Of a stretch of 44,335 bases of DNA, positions 5,638-44,335 are shown piece after piece. The translations under genes and the position numbers were made by a program. The notes beneath the pieces were generated by a model, which made no database searches, was not told the DNA's origin, and saw nothing but the letters and a program-made list of their open reading frames with translations. Positions within the stretch are counted from its first letter, which is position 1; the number at the start of each line of letters is the position of its first letter. The DNA is from a virus. Location of the stretch: IMG/VR virus record IMGVR_UViG_3300037501_000085, one strand, 5' to 3'.

Positions 5638-6569
5638 TGGCGACCCTGCCGATCTTCGACCCCGGGTTTTCCCTGGGGTCCGTGTATTTCCAGGGCTCTG
5701 GCGGCCCGGACGAGGATCCGAGCCTGGTTTGGGACGACACGGACAAGCGGCTGGTCCTGGGGACGAGCACGGCCACCAAGCGCGGTCGGCTCCACGTGGC
5801 CCACCTGACCTCGCCGGCCTCGGAGCGGGGTGGGATCCTGTCCGAGGGCCCGGTAGCGTGCGGGGTGGATGCTGGGGCTGGCTCGTTCGGTTCGGCGAGC
5901 CCGTATGTCAGCATGATCCTGGGCTCGGTCGTAGACGGGGCCCCGTTCGGTGTGGGGGGACAGGGCGGGCTCTATGCGGTTGCCAGATCTGGTGCGGCCG
6001 GAGTCCCTCCGACTAACGCCCCCTACGTCGGTCTGTCGTGTTGGGACTGGGGTGACGGTCTGACGGGGGTTGATCAGGGCCGGACTCTCTACTACGGAGG
6101 AGGAGGCTGGGCGGCCCCGGACTGTACGAGTCATCAGTTCTACACGTCTGACACCTACACCGAGACTACGGACACGGGCCTACTCAGGTTCGGGATTACC
6201 AATTCCCTGGTCTACGTGCGGGAGGCACAATTCCGTTTGGAGGGGGACATATCCAGCACCTTCAGTACGAGCCAAAATAATTGGAATCCCGCGGGTTTGT
6301 CCACGGCCCAGACGATCCGGGCTACGGCCTCGGCCGCGGCCCTGTCGATCACGGGATTGGCCGGGGGAGGGGATGGTAGGATCATAATCCTGCACAATGT
6401 GGGTGCGACGAATAGCTTCACTTTGGTCCATCAATCGACTAGCTCGTCGGCGGCCAATCGATTTGCCCTGCCCGGGGCCACGGACGTGGTCATCCCGACG
6501 GACGGATCCGTGACTCTGAGGTACGATGCCTCCTCGTCTAGGTGGCGACTCCTAGCCAAGGCCCTATGA
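5637..6569 (+). CDS. Fibre-like or virion-associated protein (310 aa)
   Basis: Gly/Ser/Thr-rich. The C-terminal block is ITGLAGGGDGRIIILHNVGATNSFTLVHQSTSSSAANRFALPG…VTLRYDASSSRWRLL. It is translationally coupled on both sides. Confidence 0.6.
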   Translation: MATLPIFDPGFSLGSVYFQGSGGPDEDPSLVWDDTDKRLVLGTSTATKRGRLHVAHLTSPASERGGILSEGPVACGVDAGAGSFGSASPYVSMILGSVVDGAPFGVGGQGGLYAVARSGAAGVPPTNAPYVGLSCWDWGDGLTGVDQGRTLYYGGGGWAAPDCTSHQFYTSDTYTETTDTGLLRFGITNSLVYVREAQFRLEGDISSTFSTSQNNWNPAGLSTAQTIRATASAAALSITGLAGGGDGRIIILHNVGATNSFTLVHQSTSSSAANRFALPGATDVVIPTDGSVTLRYDASSSRWRLLAKAL

Positions 6570-6979
6570 CCCGACGTGACGCCCTCACCCTCTATCTGCG
6601 GCAGCTCCGACGGAGGGGTCAGGCCGAAGTCGAGGCCTTTTGTTTGGCCTCGAAGGAGGATCAGGACCAGGCCCTCCAGGCCTGGCTCACCCGGCAGGTG
6701 GCCCAGGTGGACGAGGCCCTGGCCGCTATCCAGGCCGAGCCCCCGGCCCCGGCCCTGGACTCGCCCGAGGAGATCCGGGCGGCCTGGATCCGGGAGCAGG
6801 CCCAGGACGTGACCGGGGCCGTCAGACTGGCCGCCCTTCTCTCGGGGGATGCCCTGGACCTGGACACCTGGGCCGAGGACCGGCGGACCAAGCTCCAGGC
6901 CAGGGCCGAGGCGAACGCCCGGCGGGTGGAGGACCTCCAGGCGATCCGCGATTCCCTGGCCCGAGGGCTCGAGCCATGA
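6566..6979 (+). CDS. Coiled-coil protein (137 aa)
   Basis: ATG 6566 forms an ATGA overlap with the previous stop. The Ala/Glu/Arg/Leu-rich translation looks helical. Another ATGA overlap leads into the next gene. Confidence 0.55.
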   Translation: MTRRDALTLYLRQLRRRGQAEVEAFCLASKEDQDQALQAWLTRQVAQVDEALAAIQAEPPAPALDSPEEIRAAWIREQAQDVTGAVRLAALLSGDALDLDTWAEDRRTKLQARAEANARRVEDLQAIRDSLARGLEP

Positions 6980-8097
6980 GCCAGATCCACGCCGAGCGGA
7001 CCCAGACGAACGTACCCCTCTACCTGTCCGTGACCCGGACCGGGGCCGGGGGCGTGGCCGGGCTGACGGCCGTGGTCGCGATCCGGGACGGTCAATCCAC
7101 CACGAGCTACCTGGATTGGTCTGACCAAACTTTCAAGACATCGGGCTGGACCACCCGGGAGGCGGCCATGGCCGATCTCGGGGGAGGATTCTACGCCCGG
7201 GCCGGCGGACTCAATCTCTCCACGATCACGAATCTGCCCGGGACCACGACTCATCTGGTAGCCGAGTATCGCGTGTCCGGGATCTACGCCGGAGTGTCGA
7301 CCGATCATATCCTCCTGGCGACCACGGTCTACGCCCCTGCTACTTCGGCCCAGGCCACGGATATTCAGGCCCGGCTCCCGGCGACCCTGAGCGGGGGCCG
7401 GATGCGGGCTCAGGTGGAGGGAATGGATGCGGGTACGGTCACGGCCTCGGCCGTGGCCACGGACGCAATCGACGGGGACGCCCTGGCCGCGTCCGCGGTC
7501 TCGGAGATCCAGGCCGGTCTGGCCACGGCTGCGGCTCTGGCCCTGGTCCAGGCAGATACGGACGATATCCAGGCCCGGCTCCCGGCGACCCTCCTAGGCG
7601 GACGCATGCGGGCTCACGTGGAGGACCTGGACCCCGGGACCATCACCAGCTCCGAGGCCCCGGCCCTGGCGAATCTGGACGTGGCCGTCTCGAGCCGGGC
7701 GATCCCCGGGGATGCCATGGCCCTGACCGTCCTGGCCCGGGACGCCGTGGCGGACGCGATCTGGGACGAGGCCCTGGCGGGGCACCTGGTGGCCGGCTCG
7801 ACGGGCAAGGCCCTGGACGACGCCAAGGACGCGGCGGATGCCTCGAGTATCGCCACGGCCGTCTTGGGGGCCTCGGTCTCGGGGCATCCCGTGGGCTCCC
7901 TCGGGGACGTCGTCCAGCTCCTCCGGCGCATGGCGCGCAATCGTCTTGAGGAGGCCCCGGGCTCGCCCGGGACCCTGATCCTCTATGCGGACGACGGGAT
8001 CACACCCCTGATCACCTGGACCCTGACGGATTTCCAGGGCAACGCTACTCTGGGCCAGGTCGGGGTCCCGAGCCGGCGGACGGCCGGGGCCCCGTGA
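6976..8097 (+). CDS. Fibre-like repeat protein (373 aa)
   Basis: Start moved to ATG 6976 (MSQIHAERTQTNVPLYLSVTRTGAGGVAGL…). An internal module duplication about 68 aa apart reads DIQARLPATLSGGRMRAQVEGMDAGTVTAS against DIQARLPATLLGGRMRAHVEDLDPGTITSS. It also carries AIWDEALAGHLVAGSTGKAL, a motif I recall from phage fibre-like proteins. Confidence 0.65.
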   Translation: MSQIHAERTQTNVPLYLSVTRTGAGGVAGLTAVVAIRDGQSTTSYLDWSDQTFKTSGWTTREAAMADLGGGFYARAGGLNLSTITNLPGTTTHLVAEYRVSGIYAGVSTDHILLATTVYAPATSAQATDIQARLPATLSGGRMRAQVEGMDAGTVTASAVATDAIDGDALAASAVSEIQAGLATAAALALVQADTDDIQARLPATLLGGRMRAHVEDLDPGTITSSEAPALANLDVAVSSRAIPGDAMALTVLARDAVADAIWDEALAGHLVAGSTGKALDDAKDAADASSIATAVLGASVSGHPVGSLGDVVQLLRRMARNRLEEAPGSPGTLILYADDGITPLITWTLTDFQGNATLGQVGVPSRRTAGAP

Positions 8098-8312
8098 GCT
8101 TCCTGGGTCGGGCCGGGCATATACCCCTGGGTCGGGCCGGGGTCTCGTTCGGATATGGGGCCGAGTCCACGATAGGCCTCCTCCAGACCGTGATCACCCT
8201 GGCCGCCGACGTCGAGCCCCTCACCCTGACCTCAGTAGTGGCCCCGGCTCTCGTGCTCGGGAGCCAGGTCTCCCCCCTGGACCTGGTCTCCCGTATCGAG
8301 CCCTCAGATTAG
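8094..8312 (+). CDS. Small hypothetical protein (72 aa)
   Basis: GTGA overlap with the preceding gene. Its end overlaps the stop of the convergent DUF932-like gene by 4 nt. Confidence 0.4.
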   Translation: MSFLGRAGHIPLGRAGVSFGYGAESTIGLLQTVITLAADVEPLTLTSVVAPALVLGSQVSPLDLVSRIEPSD

Positions 8313-9370
8313 ACGGAGAGCCCAGCATCCCTCAGGATCTGGCGGGCGATCTGACCCGCGTCGATCCCATGATCCTGGGCCGCATCGACGGTCATGCGCT
8401 CGATCGTGCCATCGGCCATGACCACCTCGACCAGCTCCTGAATTTGCTGGATTCGCTCGGCCCGGGCGCCGAACAGGAGAGAATCCAAGGCGTCCCCGCC
8501 TCGGACCTCACGGCGAGTACCGTCGGCGTGACGGTCGACGAGCCAGGTCGCGGCATTCCAGAGGGTGGCGAGGTTCCCGGGGCGAGTACCCACACGGTTC
8601 TCCGGCCTGGCCGCGGCCAGGCGGGCCTCCGTTCGGAGGTTCTCCGCTCGGGTTTTGGCGTTGGCCGAGGCCGATTCCTCGGCCTCGGGAAAGAGGGCGT
8701 CAAAGGCGGCCTGGGCCGCGGCCCGGGGCAGGATCGTCTGCTCGGCCCGGGCGAAAAGATCCCGGACCTTCTCCCCGGTCTTGATCGTGTCCGCGATCGT
8801 GGCCTGGAGGACCTGCACCTTGGTCTCGAGGGAGGCCGTGTGCCGGAGCTTGGCCATGCCCTCCCCATCCGAGCGCATGGCCGCGGACAGGGTGTTGGCA
8901 CACACGACACGGACCGACGTCGTACCAGCGGTCAGGCGCATGGAGCCGTCGAAAGAATCCGCGAGAATCAACTGCGTCCGGATCCCGTCACCCCCGACGT
9001 CGAACGTGGCGAGCACACGGGACCCGTCCCGGAGGGCGAAGGCCCCGGTCGGGGCCGCGCCCGCGACCACGGCAGCCCGGCACAGGTCCCGCCACTCGGC
9101 TGGGGTCGTGGCCCGGTAACGGTCCCCGACTGCGCCGAGGACTGCGGAGGGGTGGCCCTGGTAATGTCCGACCAGGGCCTGGACCGGGGCTCGGAGGCCT
9201 GTGGACGTGTGCAGGGGCATCAGATCCAGAGCGACGGGCCACGCGCCCGAGGATTCGCCCAGGGCGATTTGATCCTCGGCCGTGGTCATCACACCGATAT
9301 CCTCCAGGCCGTGCCAGGAGGACGCCGTCAAAACCCCGCGATGCCATTCGTGTGCCATATTCTCATCCAT
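8309..9370 (-). CDS. DUF932-family (phage/plasmid-like) protein
   Basis: It shows the pattern W-H-G…LGAVGDRY…ILADSFDGSMRL…RVVCANTL…LRHT, characteristic as recalled of DUF932/TIGR03299 proteins. The start is ambiguous among 9403, 9370 and 9358. Confidence 0.7.
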   Translation of the reverse strand: MDENMAHEWHRGVLTASSWHGLEDIGVMTTAEDQIALGESSGAWPVALDLMPLHTSTGLRAPVQALVGHYQGHPSAVLGAVGDRYRATTPAEWRDLCRAAVVAGAAPTGAFALRDGSRVLATFDVGGDGIRTQLILADSFDGSMRLTAGTTSVRVVCANTLSAAMRSDGEGMAKLRHTASLETKVQVLQATIADTIKTGEKVRDLFARAEQTILPRAAAQAAFDALFPEAEESASANAKTRAENLRTEARLAAARPENRVGTRPGNLATLWNAATWLVDRHADGTRREVRGGDALDSLLFGARAERIQQIQELVEVVMADGTIERMTVDAAQDHGIDAGQIARQILRDAGLSV

Positions 9371-9454
9371 CCTTTCGTCTTTCGACGGACTCAGGTAAAG
9401 CACGGGTTATGCCAACCTTGGAACAGGAATTTTTGGGATTTGGCTGGATCAGGG

Positions 9455-29776: not shown

Positions 29777-31016
29777 ATCTCCGGGCCCTGACCTCTTCCG
29801 GGGTCAGGACCTCCCGGTCCAGGTAGATCGCATCGGTGTCGGCCAGGAGTTTGTCCGCCTCTCGTCGCTCTTTGGGAGTCTCCTGGAATAGGCTGGGAAA
29901 TATGACCCCATGCTCTCCCCGGATGCCCAGGGCCAGGGCCGTCACGTGGACGAGCTGGATCAGGATCGGGGCCAGGATGTTGGCCTGATCGGATTTGATC
30001 CGATCGTAGAAAATCCGCAGGTCCGTGTCCCCCGTGGCGTTCAAACCGGCGGGGGCCTGGCCCATCAAGAGAGTGACCGGGATCTCGGATGAGGCGGCCA
30101 GACGGTTGGCCGCTCGGTCCATCATCTCGGGGACCCCCGCGAATTGTGTGGCAATTTTTTCGTACCTCTCCCCGCCCTCGGCGTCCAGCATGACTGCCCT
30201 GGCCACCGATCGACCCATGTCCAGGAGCACGGCCCGACTCATCAGATCCTGCTTTTGGCCTCCGGCGAGGGCCGAGATCAGGCCCCGCATGGTGAATACG
30301 GCCTGACTGGCATCGCTCAGCATCAGGGTCCCGGCCTGGTGGGCCGTGTTGAACATCTGTAGGGCCGGGTAGCACACCTGGAGGACGGACAGGTCCCAGC
30401 CGTCTAACTCCTCCTGCTCCTCCTGGGCCGTATGGGCGCCGGAGAATCGGATCGTCCGGGACACGTGGACCGTGGACGACTGCCCGCGGATGGGCTGGAT
30501 CCGGTAGACCTCGGGCTCCTGGTAGTCCGGACTGGCCGGGTCCTCATTCCGGCGCTCGACCGTGAGTCGACGGCGATCGTAGACCTGAAGATAGGCCACA
30601 CCCCGGCCCACGATCCTGTCCAGAGCGAGGGGCTGGTCCGCCGGGAGGCCATCGTCCACGCCCAGGATCAGGAGGGCCCCCCCGAACAGACGGCCCCACA
30701 GGAGCCCGTCCAGGACCTGCCGGGTCGCGTCCAGGTCCGTCAGGGTGGTCTGGATCTGGTCCGAGCCCGGGCCCGTCACCCGGTAGCCCTGCCGGAGCAT
30801 TTCCCGGGGGACTATCTCCACGATCTTCCTGGCCATGTCGTCGCCATGGTAGAGCGCAGACAGTTCGGGGTCGGACAGGCGGAGGGACGGGGCGAAGATC
30901 GTGTGACTCAGTTTGTCCCGGCTCGTCCCGAAGCCCGTGAACGGATTCTGCCAGCCGTCGGCCCGGCCCAGGCCGAGGGCTCCGGATAGATCGCGGAGAC
31001 GGTCATGGATCGTCAC
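29727..31016 (-). CDS. Portal protein (DUF1073-type)
   Basis: …GWQNPFTGFGTSRDKLSHTIFAP…LSDPELSALYHGDDMARKIVEIVPREMLRQG… It lies directly downstream of TerL (ATGA overlap). Confidence 0.75.
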   Translation of the reverse strand: MTIHDRLRDLSGALGLGRADGWQNPFTGFGTSRDKLSHTIFAPSLRLSDPELSALYHGDDMARKIVEIVPREMLRQGYRVTGPGSDQIQTTLTDLDATRQVLDGLLWGRLFGGALLILGVDDGLPADQPLALDRIVGRGVAYLQVYDRRRLTVERRNEDPASPDYQEPEVYRIQPIRGQSSTVHVSRTIRFSGAHTAQEEQEELDGWDLSVLQVCYPALQMFNTAHQAGTLMLSDASQAVFTMRGLISALAGGQKQDLMSRAVLLDMGRSVARAVMLDAEGGERYEKIATQFAGVPEMMDRAANRLAASSEIPVTLLMGQAPAGLNATGDTDLRIFYDRIKSDQANILAPILIQLVHVTALALGIRGEHGVIFPSLFQETPKERREADKLLADTDAIYLDREVLTPEEVRARRFGLAPSSTPPSPPPSP

Positions 31017-32479
31017 GTATCCTCACCTCTAACACGGGCCATCGCCCGGCTGAAGTCCTCGCCGTGCCGTCGCAGACGGCCTAGGGCCTGGCTGGTCATG
31101 TCCACCATGTCATCATGGGCCGATCGAGGGAAGGCCTCGTGCTGGGCCTGATAGGCTTTCACCCACCCGGCCAGGCTCGGGTGAGGGATCAGGACCCGGC
31201 CCGAAGCGAAGGCCGGGGTGCAGGCATGGGCCCGGGCCTCCTTCCCGCCCTCGGGCGAAACGAGGGTTATCCCTCGGATCTCCCGGCGGAGAGCGTCTTC
31301 TACGGCGGGCCCGTTGGCCTTGTCCTCGACCAACTTATCGTGAGCCCTGGGCCACTTAGCGGTCATGTGGCGCATGGCGTCAAGGGTCTGGGTGAAGGTC
31401 ATGCGCTCACAGATTAGGTCCATGAGTAGATACTGACCCCGGGCGGCCCACCAGACCCCCCCGCAGACGAAATCCGACCCGTCCGAGCCCTTGAAGGTCA
31501 GGTCCCAGGACTGGATCTGAATCCCATGCCCCTCCGGGGGGAGGGGCTGGCCTCGGTCCTGATCGTCAGGGTGCCAGTATCGCCACCAGTCCCGGCGGAA
31601 GATCCCCCCTCCCCGCCGGGTCGGGCGTTGCTGAAGCTGCGCCGCAGCCACGTCCGGTCCCATCTCCTCCACCTCCAGCCGGCGGACGGCCTCCTCGGGG
31701 TAGCGGTCGGGGCAGAGGAGGGCCCCGGGCTCGGTTCGCCGGTCTCCTCCCCAGGCCGTCCGGCAGGGCTCGTCCTCCTCGTATCGCATGGGTAGACGGA
31801 GGAGGGTGTATCCGGCTCGGATGCATTCCCCGGCCAGGTCATCCTCGTGTAGACGCTGCATGATCACGACCCGGCGGAAGGACCGAGGATCCCGGGCTCG
31901 GCTGGCCATCGTCTGTCGCCACCAGGAGCTGACCGCCTCCAGGGCCGTCCGAGAGTGATTCACGCCTCCACTGGCGTCCCGAGGCTTGATCGGATCGTCC
32001 ACGATCTGGATGTCGGCGTGGCGCCCGGTCACCTTCCCGGCCACGGACGTGGAAAAGCGGAAACCCCCGAGAAGGTTGGAGAAATTGGCCAGGGCCAGGT
32101 TGCCCTTAGGGCATAGATTTCCCCAGCGCTCCAGGTACCAGTCCGAGCGGAGCAGGGTGATCAATTTGGCTGCGTCCCGGGTGGCCAGAGTGCCGTCGTA
32201 ACTGGCACAGATCCAGGACGTTCGGGGTCGCAAAGACCATTCCCAGGCCTGCCAGAAGACCCCGACGGCCAAGGACTTGCCTGTCCCCGGGGGGACGTTG
32301 ATCACCAACCTGGTGATCTCTCCCCGACTCACGGCCTCCAGGTGTCGGCATATCTCCTCCAGGTGCCAGGAGGGAACGAAGCCCGGGCCTTCTACGTGGG
32401 GCCAGGCAAGGAGGAGGAATTGGTAGAGGCCCCCCGTGCGGATGAGGGCCCGATCGATGGAGGGGAGACTAGCCCCCAT
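31013..32479 (-). CDS. terL: Terminase large subunit
   Basis: Walker A VINVPPGTGKSL and Walker B DIQIVDDP, with acidic nuclease-type residues in the C-terminal half. Located upstream of the portal gene. Confidence 0.85.
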   Translation of the reverse strand: MGASLPSIDRALIRTGGLYQFLLLAWPHVEGPGFVPSWHLEEICRHLEAVSRGEITRLVINVPPGTGKSLAVGVFWQAWEWSLRPRTSWICASYDGTLATRDAAKLITLLRSDWYLERWGNLCPKGNLALANFSNLLGGFRFSTSVAGKVTGRHADIQIVDDPIKPRDASGGVNHSRTALEAVSSWWRQTMASRARDPRSFRRVVIMQRLHEDDLAGECIRAGYTLLRLPMRYEEDEPCRTAWGGDRRTEPGALLCPDRYPEEAVRRLEVEEMGPDVAAAQLQQRPTRRGGGIFRRDWWRYWHPDDQDRGQPLPPEGHGIQIQSWDLTFKGSDGSDFVCGGVWWAARGQYLLMDLICERMTFTQTLDAMRHMTAKWPRAHDKLVEDKANGPAVEDALRREIRGITLVSPEGGKEARAHACTPAFASGRVLIPHPSLAGWVKAYQAQHEAFPRSAHDDMVDMTSQALGRLRRHGEDFSRAMARVRGEDT

Positions 32480-33095
32480 CTGGTTCCCAGGCCTGCGAGA
32501 ATTCCCGATCGGCGAAGAGGTCAGCCAGGCCTGTGATCTGCTTCAGTCTCCGGACCTCATCCTCACACATGCCTAATTCCTCTTGGATCTTGTCGTCTCT
32601 CCATCCTGCCCGGTAGAGCATCCGGACGACATCTCCCCTGGCCTCCACCCGATGGTCCCCCCGAGCCCGGTTGTGTTCTACTGTGGCAGCGATTCTAGCT
32701 GCCTTGTCCGAGCGCTCGGCTCGGATCTGGGTGACGGGTAGGTGGCCCAAGGTGCTCTGCCGGATTCTAGGATGCTCCTTCCCTACCCGATGTCGGTGGA
32801 ATCCGTCGACCACTACCACCCCTTGATCGTCTTGATGGGTGACAATGGGCATGGTGTAGCCATTTGCCTCTACTGAATGGGCCAGGAGCTTCATTTCAGG
32901 GGGCGCGACCGTATTGGGGTTGTAGTCATTGCCCCTCACCTCCTCTGCTCGGACCCACCGAACGAAGTCTACGGGGTGATCTCGGAGGGGGGAAATCTGG
33001 TGGAGTGCTTCTCGGATCTCGTTCAAGGCGTCAATTCGATCCTCTTCCGGGAGAACCAGAAGGATTTGGATCAATTTCTCTAGAGAGGCTCTCAT
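32469..33095 (-). CDS. ParB/Srx-like nuclease-domain protein (IbrB-like)
   Basis: Start placed at ATG 33095 (ATGA overlap with the GNAT stop). Contains …PIVTHQDDQGVVVVDGFHRHRVG… (ParB N-domain DGxHR motif) and a C-terminal helical segment. Confidence 0.7.
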   Translation of the reverse strand: MRASLEKLIQILLVLPEEDRIDALNEIREALHQISPLRDHPVDFVRWVRAEEVRGNDYNPNTVAPPEMKLLAHSVEANGYTMPIVTHQDDQGVVVVDGFHRHRVGKEHPRIRQSTLGHLPVTQIRAERSDKAARIAATVEHNRARGDHRVEARGDVVRMLYRAGWRDDKIQEELGMCEDEVRRLKQITGLADLFADREFSQAWEPDGG

Positions 33096-33460
33096 CGGGG
33101 ATCTCTCCGGAGCCATACCCCCCCACGGCCGGCCTTCCAGCGCACAAATCCAGCAAGCTTATGGGCTCTCATGGAGGCCGCACAGCCATCGGGAATGAAG
33201 GCTACGAACGTCTTATGTGGGTGGGCTGCATAATAAGCCTGAACCAGACCCTTGGCCCGATAAGCAGGGAGCACGAAAATCGGTCCCAGGCGCCACCCAG
33301 ACTGTGTCTCGTGAGGGGTGACGAAGCCCACGATCTGCCCCTCGTATCGTAGGGGCTCGCGTCTCGTACTAGAGATGATCACCCGAGGACCTATCAAGGG
33401 ATCCTTTCGGGCCTCCTGGATGATGGTCATGGGGATCCCTCGTTCATCTACAGATTCCAT
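33092..33460 (-). CDS. Small GNAT-family acetyltransferase-like protein
   Basis: WRLGPIFVLPAYRAKGLVQAYY fits the GNAT acetyl-CoA-binding motif A context. It is 112-122 aa depending on the start (33430 or 33460). Confidence 0.5.
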   Translation of the reverse strand: MESVDERGIPMTIIQEARKDPLIGPRVIISSTRREPLRYEGQIVGFVTPHETQSGWRLGPIFVLPAYRAKGLVQAYYAAHPHKTFVAFIPDGCAASMRAHKLAGFVRWKAGRGGVWLRRDPR

Positions 33461-34683
33461 AGTGCCCTCCTCTTCTTCATAATCTTGCGGTAGCGCTCAA
33501 ATGACGTCTCTGTACTTCTCTGTTGGGAGAACGAAAGACCTCGACACATCCGGTCATTTTTTAGCAAGACCTTAGCCACCCGACGCCAGGTTGGGGCCTG
33601 TCGTTTGGCCTCCACGGAATGAGGGGCCTCGTCCTCGATCTCCCGACCGCGGTGATTTCTCCACCAGGCTCGAAAGACCGCGATCTTATTCTCATAATGC
33701 TCCCGTTCATGGGCCGGGAGAGAGTCCAGAAGGAATCTAACGTAGCTCTCCCAGGAGGGGTGAGAAGAGGGCAGGTTGACTCGGCCATCTCCCAGGACGT
33801 TACCCCTCTGTCCAGCATAGATGGATCCGAAGTTAGCTCCGCTCACCCGAGCCACTACACGATTCCAGGCCTCTGGCTCAATTACATGCCACATGGCTAG
33901 GCTTCTTCTTTGGTCGTCTCCATAGGGCTGGCAAATTCGTTGCTGGTGAATGGACAGGCCTGCCTTGTACATGAGGTCATAGAGCTGATTATAAGGCAGG
34001 CCGGTCTTGCCGACGTAGGTCCAAATGTCTTCCGTCCTCCAATCGTAGATGGGATAGACATTGAACAGGCTCCCTCCCTTCCAGGCCGTCCAAGGACGGC
34101 CCTCGAGTCGACTCTTGCGCCGCTTGACGATTGCCCTCCAGCGATTGAGACTCTCATCTGTCCGGATGGCCACGAAACAGGCCGTGGACTTGTCCCCTCC
34201 GTACCAATGACCAAATTGCTCCACGAATTCTTCGAATTCCTGGGCCCCTCCGGACCAGGGGGGGCGATAGAAGGGATACCTGGACTCGTCTGTGACAGCC
34301 TGGGCCGGTGGCTCTCGGACCCATCTCCCCTTCGCCCGGGGGTCCCAACACACCCAGTAAGGCTCCTTCATACTGACAGCGTTCCGCAGGCGGAGGGGGA
34401 GGGCCACCCAATGGGGATCGATCACATCCTGATAGAGGGCGAACATTTCTCGTACGTGTGTGATCGTGGCCGAGTATTGGGCCTCTAAATCCACGTACAG
34501 GACACCGATAGTTCGGCGCCTTCGTCGGGCCTCCTGGCAGACCAGGTGCATCATGACACTGGAGTCCTTGCCAGATGGCCCAGATAGGTAGATGCGCTCA
34601 AAGGAGTCGAAGGCCCATAGGATCCTGTCTCGGGCCGCGTCCAGGACATTGATTTCCAGATATCGCTTGGCTAGGTCAGCCAC
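33448..34683 (-). CDS. PAPS-reductase-family (PP-loop ATPase) protein with DUF3440-like C-terminal region (IbrA-like)
   Basis: PP-loop YLSGPSGKDSSVMMHL. The C-terminal …APTWRRVAKVLLKNDRMCRGLSFSQ resembles the recalled conserved end of IbrA/DUF3440 proteins. Confidence 0.75.
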   Translation of the reverse strand: MADLAKRYLEINVLDAARDRILWAFDSFERIYLSGPSGKDSSVMMHLVCQEARRRRRTIGVLYVDLEAQYSATITHVREMFALYQDVIDPHWVALPLRLRNAVSMKEPYWVCWDPRAKGRWVREPPAQAVTDESRYPFYRPPWSGGAQEFEEFVEQFGHWYGGDKSTACFVAIRTDESLNRWRAIVKRRKSRLEGRPWTAWKGGSLFNVYPIYDWRTEDIWTYVGKTGLPYNQLYDLMYKAGLSIHQQRICQPYGDDQRRSLAMWHVIEPEAWNRVVARVSGANFGSIYAGQRGNVLGDGRVNLPSSHPSWESYVRFLLDSLPAHEREHYENKIAVFRAWWRNHRGREIEDEAPHSVEAKRQAPTWRRVAKVLLKNDRMCRGLSFSQQRSTETSFERYRKIMKKRRALWNL

Positions 34684-35243
34684 GCCTGAGCCTCCTTCTG
34701 GGAAAGTATTTTCAGGGAAGGCCCGGCCCCGAGCAAATGACGGGATCCCTCCCGATATACTTCATAGATTCGGCCATGTCGGAGTCGAAAGACGCGTTGT
34801 CCGTTCACGACCACGAAGCCCAATCGTCTGGGCGTACCCAGGCCCGAAACCTCGGCGACCCAAGGACGATCGGCCGGGTCATCGGGGACTCGAAGGATCG
34901 TCACCGGGTCTTGATGACCCTCGACCAAGGCCAAAGCTTCTAGAGCGTCCAGCGGCTTCTGTTTCCCTCGGTCCAACAGGAAAAATTCCCGAGACACATA
35001 GCGCTTAGAAGGTTTTCCTCGACATCGACTGACCTCATATAGATGACCATCCCGGAGAGGGAAGCAGGCCACTACCCCATACAAATTCCCACTCCAGGCC
35101 TTTCGAGCCTCGGCCCAATCGTTCAGAGGAGAGACGAATTCTCTCTGGAGACCGTAGCGTTCGTCCGGGCCGTCGATTCGGGCGACCCAGGGCCTGGGCG
35201 GGGGACCCCCATGGAAGTGTCCATCTACGCTGATCCTAAGCAT
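34671..35243 (-). CDS. Hypothetical protein (190 aa)
   Basis: ATG 35243 lies 2 nt after the methyltransferase stop (alternative start 35258). MLRISVDGHFHGGPPPRPWVARIDGPDERYGLQREFVSPL… No family recognised. Confidence 0.5.
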   Translation of the reverse strand: MLRISVDGHFHGGPPPRPWVARIDGPDERYGLQREFVSPLNDWAEARKAWSGNLYGVVACFPLRDGHLYEVSRCRGKPSKRYVSREFFLLDRGKQKPLDALEALALVEGHQDPVTILRVPDDPADRPWVAEVSGLGTPRRLGFVVVNGQRVFRLRHGRIYEVYREGSRHLLGAGPSLKILSQKEAQAWLT

Positions 35244-35245
35244 GC

Positions 35246-36067
35246 TTATAGAGCCCATGCCCTGACCTCCTCTCGATCGGCATCCCTCCGGGCCCTCCGC
35301 TCGGCCGAGGGCCCAGGCTGCGGGGCCTGATCCTCGTACGGGGCCGCCAGCCATCGATCGATCCTCTCCCTCTCTCCGGGGCTAAGAGGCCCGGCCAACC
35401 GAGCGTTGGCCCGGTCGACCCAGACCGGATCCAGTTCCCACGCGGCGCACCGTCGACCCAGAAGCTGGCACGCTCTGCTCACAGTTCCTGATCCGGCGAA
35501 CAGGTCAAGGACCAGGTCCCCTGGCCTCGAGAACCACGAGACCAGATCCAGGGCCTGGTCCAAGGGCTTCTCCGCGCGGTGCTTGGTTTCTCCCCGAAGA
35601 GCCAGATGAGCTAAATGCGTGAGAGACCCTGGCCCGAACCAGGCCTTCGCCCCTGCCTGACGACCCCAGGTGACCAGTAGATGCTCCAGGCCCGTCGGGG
35701 GCCGATCGCCGGAGAGCTGAGGCATGCTCCAGCGAACCCAGGGCAGGGTCCGGATGTAGGTCGCGCCCTGAGCCTGAGCAGCCAGGCGGAGCCACGTCGA
35801 CGATTCTACGTCCGAGTAGATCACGGACCAGGTCCGGACCAGGGCCGCAGCCCGGGCGACCGTCCTTCGGACGGCCCGAGCCATGGGCTCAAAGCCCATG
35901 TCCCGGTGCCTAACCCCGCGGCGAGGGGACTGGCTCGTGGCCGAGGCGTGGACGTGGGCCGAGTAGGGCGGATCCGTGATCAGGACGTCACCCCAGGACA
36001 GGACCTCGGGAGGGATCTGGGTCGCGTCCCCGAGCTGGACGAGGTCAATGGGGGACTCGGCCGTCAT
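35246..36067 (-). CDS. DNA methyltransferase (N6-adenine or N4-cytosine, beta-class order)
   Basis: Catalytic DPPY (VLITDPPYS) precedes the AdoMet motif DLVLDLFAGSGTV. No adjacent restriction endonuclease is recognisable. Confidence 0.8.
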   Translation of the reverse strand: MTAESPIDLVQLGDATQIPPEVLSWGDVLITDPPYSAHVHASATSQSPRRGVRHRDMGFEPMARAVRRTVARAAALVRTWSVIYSDVESSTWLRLAAQAQGATYIRTLPWVRWSMPQLSGDRPPTGLEHLLVTWGRQAGAKAWFGPGSLTHLAHLALRGETKHRAEKPLDQALDLVSWFSRPGDLVLDLFAGSGTVSRACQLLGRRCAAWELDPVWVDRANARLAGPLSPGERERIDRWLAAPYEDQAPQPGPSAERRARRDADREEVRAWAL

Positions 36068-36642: not shown

Positions 36643-37190
36643 TTGGGCTCCTTCCATGTCAGGACCGAATGCCAGAGACGCCAACGGGCCCTCCAGGGGC
36701 CTGGGCCGGCCTGGCATCTACCCGATAGCCCGGATAGGCGATCCTCCGGAAGGAGCCGTCGGCAGAGCCCGAGAGAGCCCCGGGCGACCAGGAGAGCCCT
36801 GGACGCGGCCAGGTCCCGGGAGGCGAATAGACGGCGTAGAGTGATGGGCCCGTCCGCGTCCTCCCCCCATGCGTGGACCTGCCACACAGATGCCGCGGCC
36901 CCGGAATCACACCGAGTCCGCCATCGGCCCCGACGATGGCACGGACCCACGTCCGCATCCCGGGCCAGACCGGACTCCCCGACCGCGAGCGCGATCAGGA
37001 GGGCGGCCTCCTGCCGGTCCGTCAGACCGTCGGGTCTCTCCTCCGGGGCCTCGGCCTGGGCCAGGATGGCCTGGGCGATCAGGGCGTAGCGGTCCCGGAC
37101 CTCCTCGGGGGCCTCCTCGTGGCCCGGGAACCGGGGCAGTTTCTCGGGCGGGGCGAAATGCAGGAGAGCGGCCAAAATCCAGGATTTCAT
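36639..37190 (-). CDS. Putative lytic-transglycosylase-like protein with a hydrophobic N-terminus
   Basis: MKSWILAALLHFA… then …LLIALAVGESGLARDADVG…DSGAAASVWQV, reminiscent of the E-S … D-x-G … Q pattern of SLT-type enzymes. The assignment is weak. Confidence 0.35.
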   Translation of the reverse strand: MKSWILAALLHFAPPEKLPRFPGHEEAPEEVRDRYALIAQAILAQAEAPEERPDGLTDRQEAALLIALAVGESGLARDADVGPCHRRGRWRTRCDSGAAASVWQVHAWGEDADGPITLRRLFASRDLAASRALLVARGSLGLCRRLLPEDRLSGLSGRCQAGPGPWRARWRLWHSVLTWKEPK

Positions 37191-37396
37191 TCACACAGCT
37201 CCTGAATACTTACCTGTCCGCCCGTGGCCTCGCTAACGGCCCGGGCCAGGGCGTAACGAGTCAGCCGAGCCCCTCGATCGACGCTGGATAGAGTCACGAC
37301 CGACACCCCCGCCATGGCGGACAGATCCTCCATGATCGCCCTCCGGGATAGACCGAGAGCTTCCGATCGCTCGGTGATCCATTCGTGTAGGGTCAT
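37187..37396 (-). CDS. XRE-like helix-turn-helix protein (69 aa)
   Basis: MTLHEWITERSEALGLSRRAIMEDLSAMAGVSVVTLSSVDRGARL… ATGA overlaps on both sides. The track ORF 37187..37789 is an upstream extension. Confidence 0.6.
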   Translation of the reverse strand: MTLHEWITERSEALGLSRRAIMEDLSAMAGVSVVTLSSVDRGARLTRYALARAVSEATGGQVSIQELCE

Positions 37397-37830
37397 CGCA
37401 ATCCCTCTCTCCCTAGCCACCAGAGCCCGAGGCCGATGGCGTCCCAGACGTTGTGCCGGTAGCTCGCGGCCACCCGGAGAGCCAAGGCCTCGGCCCGCTC
37501 CCGCTCCCGCGGCCTCAGGGCTCGGGCCACCCTCTGGTGATGAATCTCTTTCGGGGTGGAGCCCTTCCATTGACCGGGCTCTACCAGGTCCACCTTTACG
37601 CCCTGACAGTAGTACCATTCCACAATCCGACCGACACGGATCGAGAGCTGGATCACGTCCCGGACATCGACCGCGGCATGGCTCGGTTGCTCGCATACCA
37701 CGAACGCGCCCTCCGGTCGGACAGGCCTCTCCTGGGGCCACCGAAATAGGCCTGCGTCCCGGAGCTGGCCGTCCCAGTAGATAGCCCATCCCCCATGTGC
37801 GCCAGGATCTAGGGCTAGGAGGCCTGCCAT
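37393..37830 (-). CDS. RuvC-like Holliday junction resolvase
   Basis: Start at ATG 37830. LLALDPGAHGGWAI (Asp 1), FVVCEQP (Glu), …HNVWDAIGLGLWW (Asp-Ala-Ile). Confidence 0.65.
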   Translation of the reverse strand: MAGLLALDPGAHGGWAIYWDGQLRDAGLFRWPQERPVRPEGAFVVCEQPSHAAVDVRDVIQLSIRVGRIVEWYYCQGVKVDLVEPGQWKGSTPKEIHHQRVARALRPRERERAEALALRVAASYRHNVWDAIGLGLWWLGREGLR

Positions 37831-42034: not shown

Positions 42035-43147
42035 TTACCGGAGCACCCCCGCCCGGAGAGCCTCGGCGATCTGAGCCAGGCCCTCGGCCATCTTTTCGAT
42101 GCCCTGCTCCAGAAGGAGTTGGCCCTGGTTCTTGGGCTCGGGCATGGGGGCCTGGGCCGGCGGCGGGGAGGCCTCGGCTGCGGGGGCCTGGCGAGGCTGG
42201 GCCGGAGTCCCGTCCTTCCGGGGTCGGCCGGGACCTCGGGCGGGAGAAGAGGCCGGAGGAGGGGCCGGAGGAGGGGCTGGCACGGTCTGCACCGGGATCC
42301 AGGCCTGGCCGTCCCAGGTATGGGTCCCATCCGGGGATAGGATTGGGGCCGGCGGCGGGGGTGGGGCCTGGTCCTGGGCCGGCGGGTTGATCTGCCCCGC
42401 CTGGGCCCGGATCCGGGCCAGAAATTCCTCTTTCGATTGTACGGCGGATTGTTGGGACATGATGGACCTCATACGATTTGCTGGGGTTAGGTCGGTACAC
42501 AGAGGAAGATATGGACATCCCCCGAAGGCCTCACATGCATCAGGATTAGGAGGGATGGCCAGGGGCTCGGGACGGGCCCGATAAAGCACGTGTATCTCTT
42601 CAGCCAGGCCCTGGATCTGATCCAGGGTCGGGGTGAGATCCTGGGCCCGGAGCCGGAGGGTGATGGCCTCGGCCCGATATGGGGTACGGGTCCGGTAGTA
42701 GACCCAGGTCAGATCGGCCGCAGGACCGGACTCGAGAGCTGCCCGGGCATAGAGGACAGCCTGGACGTTAGTCCGCAGTTCTGCCGGGGTTTTGGCCCAA
42801 CGGAAATCCTTAGTAGTTTTGTGGTCCCAGACCTGGGCCCCGAGCCTCAGATCCATCCGGCCCCCGAACGTGTAGGAGCCAACCTGGAGGAGGAAATCCG
42901 ACTCTACCTCCAGGCCTGGGGTCCCAGGAGGAGGGAGCAGGTGGAGGCCGGCCAGGGCGATCTGCCCGGGCTTGGACGTGAGGTCGAGGGGCGTCCCGGA
43001 CAGGTAGTAGGCCTCCAGTTGGGCGTGTACGTCCAGACCGAGCTGGGCGGACGGGTTGGGTGGGGCCTGGAGGCCCCCGAGCTTGCGCCAGGCCCATCGG
43101 CGTGGGCACAGGACGTAGTCCTGGATTTGGGTCGCGGACAGGATCAC
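42035..43147 (-). CDS. PD-(D/E)xK exonuclease of Cas4/RecB type with a C-terminal extension of about 140 aa
   Basis: GTG start (GTGA overlap with the ParB-like stop). GRMDL…VWDHK…NVQAVLY gives the D, DxK and QxxxY motifs. Four Cys residues are C14 plus CEAFGGCPYLPLC. The extension has a proline linker, ILSPDGTHTWDGQAWIPV, the AT-hook-like GPGRPRKDG and a helical end. Confidence 0.75.
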   Translation of the reverse strand: MILSATQIQDYVLCPRRWAWRKLGGLQAPPNPSAQLGLDVHAQLEAYYLSGTPLDLTSKPGQIALAGLHLLPPPGTPGLEVESDFLLQVGSYTFGGRMDLRLGAQVWDHKTTKDFRWAKTPAELRTNVQAVLYARAALESGPAADLTWVYYRTRTPYRAEAITLRLRAQDLTPTLDQIQGLAEEIHVLYRARPEPLAIPPNPDACEAFGGCPYLPLCTDLTPANRMRSIMSQQSAVQSKEEFLARIRAQAGQINPPAQDQAPPPPPAPILSPDGTHTWDGQAWIPVQTVPAPPPAPPPASSPARGPGRPRKDGTPAQPRQAPAAEASPPPAQAPMPEPKNQGQLLLEQGIEKMAEGLAQIAEALRAGVLR

Positions 43148-44037
43148 GAAGACCGGAGGATTTTTCTCACGCTGGCATGAACCTCGGGATACTCCCGGAG
43201 CCCCTTACCGGTCGGATCCTCCCCGAGAATCACCAAGATGAGCCTATGGGCCAGCTCCACCCCATCGTTTTCGTAGGGGTACTCCTCGGTCGGGGCCAAC
43301 TGCTCCTCCAGGGCCCGAAGGGCTTTACGGCTGAGGGCCACACCACGGCGGGTCTCGGCCGGCTCTCGGTGGCGCTTGGCCCTCTCCCGGCCCTCCTGTC
43401 CCGTCAGAGGGCCTTGGGCCTGGAGGGCCTCCAGGGCGGGGCCCTGATCGTCCGGGGTGAGTTTGCCCAGTTCGTATCCGACCGATACCGGGACCGAGCC
43501 CTGGGCCACCTGAGCTTGGATGGCTGGGGTCAGGGAAAGGAGGGATCGCCAGTGGCCCAGGGTCTGGCTCGTCACACCGAAGTAGGCCCGGATCTCGGGC
43601 TCGCCGTGGCCGAGATCCCGCAAGCGCTGAGCCTTCCGGGCTCGGGTCAGGGGATGGTCCTCGAAACGGTGCTCGTTCGCCAGGACGAGCATGCCCGCAG
43701 CCCCAGGGAGGTCCGGGCTCCGGTCCATGACGGCGGGCACGCGGATTTTGGCATCCTGTCCCCGGAGAGTCCGATTGGCCAGTCGGGCGGCCCGGACCCT
43801 CTGACGGCCATCCACGACCACCAGGAGGTCCTGGACTCGACGGAGAGTGATGGGCAGGCGGATCCCGTGCTCCAGGACGGATTGGACCAGGGACTTGAGG
43901 GGAGGGGATTTGAGCCGGTCCGGATCGGCCAGTTCGGGGCACATATCCTCCGGGACGTCCTCCCCGACGATGGTCAGGGCCTCGGGCGCGAACCAGAGGC
44001 CTTGAAACTTGGCCACGGCTCCTTGGATTTGTCTCAT
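43144..44037 (-). CDS. ParB/Spo0J-like protein (ParB N-terminal domain plus HTH)
   Basis: ATG 44037 is preceded by GGAGGAGG. …LLVVVDGRQRVRAARLA… is the ParB box; …IRAYFGVTSQTLGHWRSLL… is the HTH. Confidence 0.75.
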   Translation of the reverse strand: MRQIQGAVAKFQGLWFAPEALTIVGEDVPEDMCPELADPDRLKSPPLKSLVQSVLEHGIRLPITLRRVQDLLVVVDGRQRVRAARLANRTLRGQDAKIRVPAVMDRSPDLPGAAGMLVLANEHRFEDHPLTRARKAQRLRDLGHGEPEIRAYFGVTSQTLGHWRSLLSLTPAIQAQVAQGSVPVSVGYELGKLTPDDQGPALEALQAQGPLTGQEGRERAKRHREPAETRRGVALSRKALRALEEQLAPTEEYPYENDGVELAHRLILVILGEDPTGKGLREYPEVHASVRKILRSS

Positions 44038-44335
44038 TTACAACCTCCTCCGATGGGTGCGGGCTGGCCGGCGAAACGATGTTACCTCCGACTGTGGCGG
44101 CGCCGCGACGGTGGCGCAGTTGCGCGCCGTGACGGTGGCGGAGTCGTGCGCAGCGACGATGGCGCGGCCGCGCGCCGCGACGGTGGCGCAGTCGTACGCC
44201 TTGACGGCGGCGTGGCCGTACGCCGCGACGGTGGCGGAGCCGCACGCCGTAACGGTGGCGCAGTCGTACGCCTTGACGGTGGCGCAGTCGTACGCCTTGA
44301 CGGTGGCGGAGTCGTGCGCAGCGACGATGGCGCGG
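44038..44335 (-). CDS. Octad-repeat protein, 3' portion (stop TAA at 44038-44040, abutting the ParB-like ATG)
   Basis: Own translation: …AIVAAHDS ATVKAYDC ATVKAYDC ATVTACGS ATVAAYGH AAVKAYDC ATVAARGR AIVAAHDS ATVTARNC ATVAAPPQSEVTSFRRPARTHRRRL*. The frame (first codon bases at positions divisible by 3) matches that of 1..831 once the 34-nt overlap is collapsed. Confidence 0.7.
   Translation of the reverse strand, partial: RAIVAAHDSATVKAYDCATVKAYDCATVTACGSATVAAYGHAAVKAYDCATVAARGRAIVAAHDSATVTARNCATVAAPPQSEVTSFRRPARTHRRRL
44098..44335. repeat. Tandem 24-nt repeat array (coding, minus strand), right part
   Basis: Same unit family as 1-468. Nt 44134-44232 are identical to nt 1-99. Confidence 0.9.

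Follow-up and report, generated by a model that had tools for sequence, protein, structure and literature searches.

The sequence analysed here, hereafter the window, is the whole of virus record IMGVR_UViG_3300037501_000085 (44,335 nucleotides), and the system in question is a run of minus-strand genes lying directly upstream of the large terminase gene, TerL. Four of these genes encode an all-beta protein of two tandem domains (the tandem-beta protein), a PP-loop enzyme of the IbrA type, a GNAT-fold protein and a ParB/Srx protein of the IbrB type. Gene content, intact motifs, strict linkage, a natural gene fusion and a compositional island define them as one cassette. The original prediction had described five consecutive coupled genes ahead of TerL, and all five were located on the minus strand with overlapping junctions, as follows.

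36067..35246, minus strand: beta-class N6/N4 methyltransferase, 273 amino acids (aa), PF01555 E 6.6e-13
35258..34671, minus strand: tandem-beta protein (the earlier 'unknown ORF'), 195 aa, no family match
34683..33448, minus strand: IbrA-type PP-loop enzyme, 411 aa, PAPS_reduct plus DUF3440, phrog_2302
33460..33092, minus strand: GNAT-fold protein, 122 aa, fold match by AlphaFold2/Foldseek
33116..32469, minus strand: IbrB-type ParB/Srx protein with a putative helix-turn-helix (HTH), 215 aa, phrog_2159 E 7e-62
32479..31013, minus strand: TerL, 488 aa, phrog_38 E 1.8e-87, Terminase_6C
32469..35258: low-GC island coinciding with the four-gene cassette, by per-gene GC and GC at third codon positions (GC3)

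The junctions of the cassette genes and of TerL are overlaps of 11–25 nucleotides (nt), including the predicted overlap of the IbrB stop (32469) with the TerL start (32479), and the junction between the upstream exonuclease-like gene (exo) and the methyltransferase is an overlap of 4 nt. Shine-Dalgarno sequences (GAGGAGG or AAGGAGG) lie about 7 nt 5′ of the tandem-beta, IbrA and GNAT starts, and prediction yielded neither a sigma-70-like promoter nor an intrinsic terminator for that strand from 30.5 to 38.5 kb.

Base composition sets the limits of the unit. GC content is 0.582 in the tandem-beta gene, 0.570 in IbrA, 0.585 in the GNAT gene and 0.583 in IbrB; outside these genes it is 0.681 in the methyltransferase, 0.651 in exo, 0.665 in TerL and 0.663 in the portal gene. 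GC3 is 0.60–0.66 in the four cassette genes, whereas it is 0.74–0.84 in the four neighbours just named (0.78 in the methyltransferase). For the flanking genes overall, GC ranges over 0.65–0.70 and GC3 over 0.70–0.85. The dip that had been noted at 32480–34700 was borne out, but its limits were off: by per-gene GC the block runs from 32469 to 35258 and comprises exactly four genes, with the tandem-beta open reading frame (ORF) inside and the methyltransferase outside. Because the island coincides exactly with four genes, acquisition as one unit is suggested, indicating that 32469–35258 is a horizontally acquired IbrA/IbrB-type module and, to judge from its composition, a recent insert. At locus L042, which carries the closest TerL relative in IMG/VR (48% identity), exo is followed by a DUF3310-like gene, then a basic zinc-ribbon gene and TerL, and the locus has neither a cassette nor a methyltransferase. 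This order is consistent with accessory genes having been inserted at the exo–TerL junction.

The gene immediately upstream of the island is an orphan beta-class DPPY methyltransferase, as predicted: PF01555 was matched at 49.6 bits (cut-off 26.7), ITDPPY near residue 32 is followed by DLFAGSGT near residue 190 in the beta-class order, and no endonuclease gene adjoins it. Homologues were found beside none of the cassettes in loci seeded with the tandem-beta protein or with this phage's IbrA. Since its GC is genome-like and the association is not conserved, the methyltransferase was rejected as a cassette member.

The window is a complete phage genome of 44.3 kb, probably circularly assembled, with a 34-bp exact terminal direct repeat (1–34 and 44302–44335). 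A myovirus-like virion is suggested by the structural gene set, which encodes a Baseplate_J protein, a DUF3383 sheath-like protein, a Mu-F-like head protein, a head maturation protease and a major head protein. No integrase was found among the scanned ORFs, and the phage is apparently virulent. No tRNA genes were found in the 44.3-kb genome, and blastn against INPHARED phages revealed no close deposited relative, returning only short matches of about 70% identity. The cassette lies at the 3′ end of a minus-strand replication operon encoding a ParB-like protein, a helicase, PolA, a RuvC-like protein and an exonuclease-like protein, and this operon continues directly into TerL, portal and head genes.

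Three further genes of the phage deserve mention. The ParB-like protein that heads the replication operon (43144–44037, minus strand; 297 aa, phrog_1033 E 3e-20) is a second, larger one than IbrB; Pseudomonas phage Amjad_SA has a 296-aa ParB-like gene immediately 5′ of its IbrB (L010, 3119–4009). A DUF932 protein is encoded at 8309–9403 (minus strand), and another lies two genes 3′ of IbrB in L011 (9155–10201), a possible recurrence. A 200-aa ORF at 37187–37789 (minus strand) ends in about 70 aa (MTLHEWI...VTLSSVDRGARLTR...) forming a Cro/C1-like HTH, which is kept as an 85-aa gene in L042 (4922–5179); the true gene is probably much shorter than the ORF.

The tandem-beta, IbrA and IbrB proteins

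The tandem-beta protein had been listed as a 190-aa unknown. The ORF is present, and its length depends on the start chosen: the public gene call begins at M33 and gives 195 aa (P0001), and M38 gives 190 aa. No match was found in Pfam, PHROG, PADLOC or NCBIfam, and annotation is carried by none of the roughly 90 homologous clusters. The AlphaFold2 model (predicted local distance difference test, pLDDT, 96.1) is all-beta with two domains; Foldseek found no PDB neighbour (best E 0.03, template-modelling (TM) score <0.25), and the matches in BFVD are unnamed small phage proteins only. The N and C domains are homologous, demonstrating an internal duplication (hhalign probability 96.6%, E 5.5e-10). 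An exhaustive profile search recovered the N-domain in 1,010 representative proteins at E<=1e-3, and the best 150 of these matches are mostly stand-alone copies of about 115 aa. The family was present in 1 of 185,579 GTDB species genomes.

Linkage to IbrA was assessed in 24 informative loci from IMG/VR, JGI metagenomes, GTDB genomes and exact-protein look-up, deduplicated at 95% identity; the search used a 16-sequence subset of the 44-sequence alignment. In 22 of the 24, the tandem-beta gene is the immediate 5′ neighbour of IbrA, and in one further locus a methyltransferase-like gene stands between the two. In P0276 (535 aa), a tandem-beta N-domain is fused to the N-terminus of a full IbrA (PAPS_reduct plus DUF3440). 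This fusion, together with the strict adjacency, argues for a physical partnership of the tandem-beta protein with IbrA. The original prediction had set a PP-loop/GNAT/ParB trio next to an unknown ORF; that division gives way to a four-gene unit, in which the tandem-beta protein ranks as a core member, the third component in this subtype of IbrAB, and is IbrA's most tightly linked partner. It is probably an adaptor or substrate-recognition subunit of IbrA. Other arrangements of the domain were also seen: P0140 joins an N-terminal SWIM zinc finger to a full-length tandem-beta protein, and P0171 carries two N-domains in tandem. At L037 (2495–3796), two members lie 5′ of IbrA, a full-length one of 203 aa and an N-domain-only one of 132 aa that abuts IbrA.

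The assignment of the 411-aa protein as a PP-loop enzyme with a DUF3440-like C-terminus was confirmed. Both SGPSGKDS and WRRVAKVLLKNDRMCRGLSF are present, and the protein matched PAPS_reduct (PF01507; 53.2 bits, cut-off 22.5, E 4.9e-14), DUF3440 (PF11922; 116.6 bits, cut-off 25, E 1.4e-33) and phrog_2302 (E 4.9e-84). The PP-loop reads SGPSGKDS in this phage's clade and SFSGGKDS in other clades, with G38, K39, D40 and S41 invariant among 17–22 aligned sequences. C251, within RICQPYGDD, is the sole invariant cysteine; C380 is also conserved, and the alignment holds no conserved C-terminal catalytic cysteine motif. PP-loop enzymes of the ThiI, TilS, QueC, GuaA and DndC type activate oxygens by adenylation, and IbrA is presumed from its motifs to be the catalytic, adenylating enzyme of the cassette.

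Two closer identities were tried and rejected. As a CysH/PAPS reductase, IbrA fell far short of the model cut-offs (TIGR02057, 46.8 bits versus 254.2; cysH, 36.8 versus 165.1; PRK02090, 36.5 versus 154). As a DndC orthologue, it reached only 17 bits (E 5e-4) with the PADLOC DndC model and has a single invariant cysteine. No DndA, DndD or DndE was found among the scanned ORFs of the complete phage genome. Judged by these profiles and motifs, IbrA is not an enzyme of sulfate assimilation, nor is it an orthologue of DndC.

IbrB had been predicted as a ParB/Srx-fold protein, and its match to phrog_2159 (E 7e-62), accompanied by several other ParB PHROGs, agrees with this. Pfam ParB_N scored 14.3 bits (E 0.044), under its cut-off of 26.3; the family profile matched Noc/ParB N-domains in PDB at E 0.0035–0.04, and IbrB also matches the ParB part of phrog_498 methyltransferases. 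In alignment A4, the Box II-like residues D104, G105, H107 and R108 (DGFHR) and the Box III-like residues N149, A151, R152 and G153 (HNRARG) are invariant, and a Box I-like element is conserved too. At residues 154–192, HTH_23 was matched weakly (E 0.083), and the segment LGM..DEV.RLKQITG is conserved. On these features IbrB is presumed to be a nucleoside triphosphate (NTP)-dependent DNA-binding or loading partner.

Cassette composition across phage loci

IbrA/IbrB pairs were found in 162 deposited phage records and at no fewer than 346 IMG/VR loci. The IbrA profile recovered at least 346 relatives in IMG/VR, and the best 80 loci were classified with purpose-built hidden Markov models. A ParB/IbrB gene is present in 78 of these 80 loci. 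The proposed IbrA/IbrB pairing stands, and both family assignments are supported. The gene found directly 5′ of IbrA, with its median gap to the IbrA start, was as follows.

Helical 'mid' domain: 59/80 loci, median gap -7 nt
Tandem-beta: 12/80 loci, median gap -24 nt
Neither type: 9/80 loci
Both types: 0/80 loci

A third gene is thus the rule in IbrAB cassettes. The 'mid' domain is about 140 aa long and apparently helical, with the motif HTYDKWEC...EW..SCEHYL..NRIAWIGQA and no Pfam match. It occurs in L003–L007, L009, L010 and 59 of the loci L068–L147, free in some and fused to the IbrB C-terminus in L004–L007. Remote homology between 'mid' and tandem-beta was rejected (hhalign probability 0.4%). 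Common orders are IbrB–mid–IbrA, mid–IbrA–IbrB and tandem-beta–IbrA–IbrB. The gene order of this phage is met again at more than 20 independent metagenomic loci, which takes the arrangement beyond chance.

The remaining component had been predicted as a GNAT-like protein of about 115 aa. The ORF encodes 122 aa, and the AlphaFold2 model (pLDDT 94.5) upholds the fold: Foldseek gave 57 PDB matches at E<=1e-3 with TM scores up to 0.65, and among the 50 listed all are GNAT acetyltransferases, including SpeG, RimI and Ard1/Naa10. Pfam Acetyltransf_18 reached 21.9 bits, just below its cut-off of 22.7; of the profile matches anticipated for the cassette, PAPS_reduct and DUF3440 passed, whereas ParB_N and the acetyltransferase model remained under threshold. 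Motif A reads R68-A-K-G71-L-V, with R68 invariant, G71 in at least 90% of sequences and V replacing G/A; an invariant H100 stands where the motif pattern would place the motif-B tyrosine.

GNATs of two families occur in these cassettes. The first, to which the phage's protein belongs, comprises 43 clusters; the phage's GNAT had no tblastn match in 50,697 deposited phage records. All examined contexts of this family lie inside IbrAB cassettes (this phage, L002, L013, L022, L037, L038 and L039). The second family passes the Pfam Acetyltransf_1 threshold and takes the same slot between IbrA and IbrB in L011, L015, L028, L030 and L066; in L067, an extra 213-aa gene lies between the GNAT and IbrA. 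The two families align over a 38-column core only (hhalign probability 68%), and a single GNAT family was rejected for this reason. Both were found only inside IbrAB cassettes. A GNAT between IbrA and IbrB had been considered unusual. It is indeed a minority state, with a GNAT in 11 of the 80 IbrA-seeded viral loci (in three positions, and in mid-type, tandem-beta-type and neither-type cassettes), yet it is recurrent: among the 14 loci found via the tandem-beta protein, four carry the first family, four the second and six none. Optional, recurrent and apparently dedicated, the GNAT fits a tailoring enzyme, and it is apparently a facultative, putative tailoring acyltransferase.

Cassettes usually sit among replication and recombination genes. 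That of Microcystis phage Mwe-JY13 is near a primase, YqaJ/RecT and a type I restriction-modification protein, that of Pseudomonas phage Amjad_SA is beside a helicase, and that of mycobacteriophage Gaia is beside an exonuclease with a helicase a few genes 3′; others are near integrases in prophage-like contigs. DNA-modification neighbours recur but are not fixed, with Mom in L011 and methyltransferases in L039 and L062. At L039 (4099–8774), the order is methyltransferase, a 101-aa gene, a first-family GNAT, a 287-aa unknown, IbrA and IbrB, and the locus also encodes a second, stand-alone PAPS_reduct protein (292 aa, SGGKDS). Two cassettes are decaying: in L015 (6549–7842) IbrA is frameshifted and broken into several frames, and in L066 (2241–5016), a prophage in a Polyangiaceae metagenome-assembled genome, IbrA is split by an IS1595-family transposase. 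Such decay fits a dispensable accessory function.

Proposed function and competing explanations

We tentatively favour the reading, which we hold to be possible but short of probable, that the cassette encodes a DNA-modifying complex powered by ATP and working through adenylation, with acylation as a tailoring step; covalent modification of DNA with the GNAT handling an acyl group had been the first of the two original suggestions. The preference is based on domain chemistry, context and precedent. IbrB, with its predicted ParB/Srx NTP-binding domain and putative HTH, would bind DNA and recruit or license the enzyme, in the manner of DndB, DpdB and ParB–methyltransferase fusions, and the tandem-beta protein would serve IbrA as a substrate-recognition or adaptor subunit or as a reader. 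The PP-loop of IbrA would adenylate an oxygen on a DNA base or the backbone, after which a nucleophile (an amine, ammonia or sulfur) would displace AMP. In cassettes that have a GNAT, this enzyme could, as optional tailoring, acylate the amine just installed or exposed. The outcome would be phage DNA whose modification makes it resistant to host nucleases.

Several findings support DNA modification. The PP-loop is intact, IbrB keeps the Box II-like and Box III-like NTP-pocket residues and an HTH-like C-terminus, and the tandem-beta protein is linked or fused to IbrA. The restriction of the GNATs to IbrAB cassettes agrees with it as well, since GNATs acting on phage DNA bases have precedent, and so does the placement of cassettes among replication and recombination genes, often near DNA-modification genes. 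The cassette is, moreover, a compositional island that travels among unrelated phage backbones, as expected of an accessory counter-defence module.

Known systems provide partial parallels. The Dnd system also pairs a ParB-superfamily protein with a PAPS-reductase-family PP-loop protein, DndB with DndC, the latter being an ATP pyrophosphatase acting on DNA; however, DndC has Fe-S cysteines and a cysteine dyad, whereas only C251 is invariant in IbrA. DpdB is a ParB-like ATPase required for preQ0 insertion into DNA, and the DpdA–DpdB pair thus resembles the cassette in having a ParB-like NTPase as obligate helper of a DNA-base-modifying enzyme, although catalysis there falls to a TGT transglycosylase and not to a PP-loop protein; the scanned ORFs of this phage yielded neither a TGT nor any preQ0 pathway gene. 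Small GNAT-fold enzymes within phage DNA-modification clusters include PaMx11 gp48, which acetylates 5-aminomethyldeoxyuridine (5-NmdU) in phage DNA (PMC8989533) as an optional last tailoring step, and Mu Mom, which glycylates deoxyadenosine (PMC13219725). Their upstream chemistry differs, relying on a 5-hydroxymethyldeoxyuridine (5-hmdU) kinase/transferase or Gly-tRNA instead of PP-loop adenylation, and no sequence similarity to this phage's GNAT was detected by tblastn in the 50,697 phage records. The phage ParB-CTPase fold, which binds CTP, ATP or GTP, frequently occurs fused to DNA methyltransferases, and the fusions assayed include some with acetyltransferases (PMC12704722). In these fusions a ParB N-domain binds NTP, associates with DNA and is coupled to an enzyme that modifies DNA, as IbrB would be in the cassette, but the enzyme partner in the cassette is a separate polypeptide of another superfamily.

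Other considerations weigh against DNA modification. DNA as the substrate of IbrAB is something we infer, as are the chemistry and the biological role. No donor-supplying enzyme (cysteine desulfurase, TGT, QueC or hydroxymethylase) was found among the scanned ORFs. With one invariant cysteine and no Fe-S motif in IbrA, Dnd-like thiolation in particular is unlikely. The nearest structural neighbours of the GNAT are polyamine and protein N-acetyltransferases, and the tandem-beta fold has no known relative, which makes any role assigned to it guesswork. The only published IbrA/IbrB phenotype, that of Sandt et al. 2002 in E. coli, is reportedly activation of prophage gene expression and not DNA modification.

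This last point leads to a regulatory explanation, in which IbrB would activate the transcription of late or prophage genes or counteract their silencing, and IbrA together with its accessories would supply or control a nucleotide cofactor; the cassette of this phage would turn on the late operon beginning at TerL. Besides the reported E. coli genetics, the HTH-like C-terminus of IbrB and the position of the cassette exactly at the early/late boundary, where no minus-strand promoter or terminator was predicted, would suit such a role. We nevertheless consider it unlikely, since the late-gene position is not conserved (TerL is never adjacent elsewhere, and most cassettes are among replication genes or near integrases) and a regulator has no obvious need for an invariant PP-loop enzyme, a dedicated GNAT and a fused substrate-recognition-like domain. 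A counter-defence or defence role with a target other than DNA is, in our estimation, likewise improbable. Here the target of adenylation or acylation would be a host protein, tRNA or signalling nucleotide, or the ParB/Srx domain would deplete nucleotides, so that a host immune system is neutralised or, in prophages, other phages are excluded. PP-loop enzymes commonly modify tRNA, GNATs commonly act on proteins, tRNA and polyamines, the nearest structures of this GNAT are SpeG, RimI and Ard1, and ParB/Srx proteins can be NTPases or nucleases; the cassette also behaves as a mobile accessory island, often near integrases in prophage-like contigs. However, the PADLOC defence models left IbrB, the GNAT and the tandem-beta protein unmatched and gave IbrA a DndC match of only 17 bits. 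The predicted ParB N-domain, the putative HTH and the DNA-metabolism neighbours point to DNA, and superinfection exclusion is less natural in an apparently virulent phage with no integrase among its scanned ORFs.

The packaging and metabolic explanations carry far less weight. The trio had been proposed to replace or assist the small terminase in DNA recognition, so that IbrB would recognise phage DNA for TerL, and the complete genome does lack a recognisable one: none was found among the seven proteins encoded upstream of TerL, and neither IbrB nor the other upstream proteins matched a small-terminase PHROG. The overlap of the IbrB stop with the TerL start is in keeping with such a role, as is the presence at that position in L042 of a 143-aa basic zinc-ribbon gene without a homologue in this phage; the genome likewise holds no homologue of Aeromonas phage 56 gp47. 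Comparison gave the idea no support. TerL adjoins none of more than 100 related cassettes; a TerL of this phage's type lies 3.5–4.5 kb downstream in two of the 80 loci and is absent otherwise, and the constant partner of IbrB is IbrA, not a terminase. Because the cassette is a recent insert, the lineage must already have packaged its DNA before acquiring it, and several unannotated ORFs could encode the small terminase. We therefore regard a packaging role as highly unlikely. Least credible of all is an auxiliary metabolic gene, that is, a true PAPS reductase (CysH) boosting host sulfate assimilation. The PAPS_reduct domain and the routine annotation 'phosphoadenosine phosphosulfate reductase' invite this view, but the NCBIfam CysH/PAPS-reductase models gave 37–47 bits against cut-offs of 154–254, no C-terminal catalytic cysteine motif is conserved, and IbrA carries DUF3440 as an additional domain and is obligately partnered by a ParB protein.

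As to the small terminase itself, the L042 region ahead of TerL (6145–6997) contains a DUF3310-like ORF and the 143-aa protein, which is very basic, has a C-terminal Cys4 motif and overlaps the TerL start; this protein could be a small terminase candidate. The DUF3310-like ORF, too, is without a homologue in the window.

Meaning for IbrA/IbrB systems

The phage cassette shares with the E. coli-type IbrA/IbrB system a PAPS_reduct plus DUF3440 protein with an intact PP-loop and an adjacent, co-oriented protein of the predicted ParB/Srx plus HTH type. It differs in gene order, running tandem-beta, IbrA, GNAT, IbrB, compared with the commonest IbrB–mid–IbrA and mid–IbrA–IbrB, and in E. coli PhiR5_2 no annotated gene immediately adjoins the IbrA–IbrB pair. 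No mechanism for IbrAB is given in any paper that we found, the literature mentions being at annotation level only, and none describes third components or a GNAT. The IbrAB pair is thus known but mechanistically uncharacterised, and the four-component architecture, the beta-domain partner and the dedicated GNATs are new relative to the literature found.

Extending the DNA-modification reading to the family, IbrAB could be three- to four-component systems (adaptor, IbrA, IbrB and sometimes a GNAT) that install an undescribed DNA hypermodification through adenylation-activated substitution on polymer DNA, N-acylated in some lineages. We consider this wider proposal rather doubtful. If true, it would be a way of modifying DNA that has no chemical relation to the known 5-hmdU, 7-deazaguanine, Mom and Dnd pathways.

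Taken together, the usual labels, 'PAPS reductase' (taken to mean an auxiliary metabolic gene for sulfur) and 'ParB partition protein', both misfit the findings. The IbrAB pair is nearly always accompanied by a third, unannotated protein, and dedicated GNATs have joined it repeatedly. What had carried the vague label of a 'co-activator' becomes a defined, compact cassette of about 2.8 kb that is open to direct test of nucleic-acid modification and counter-defence.

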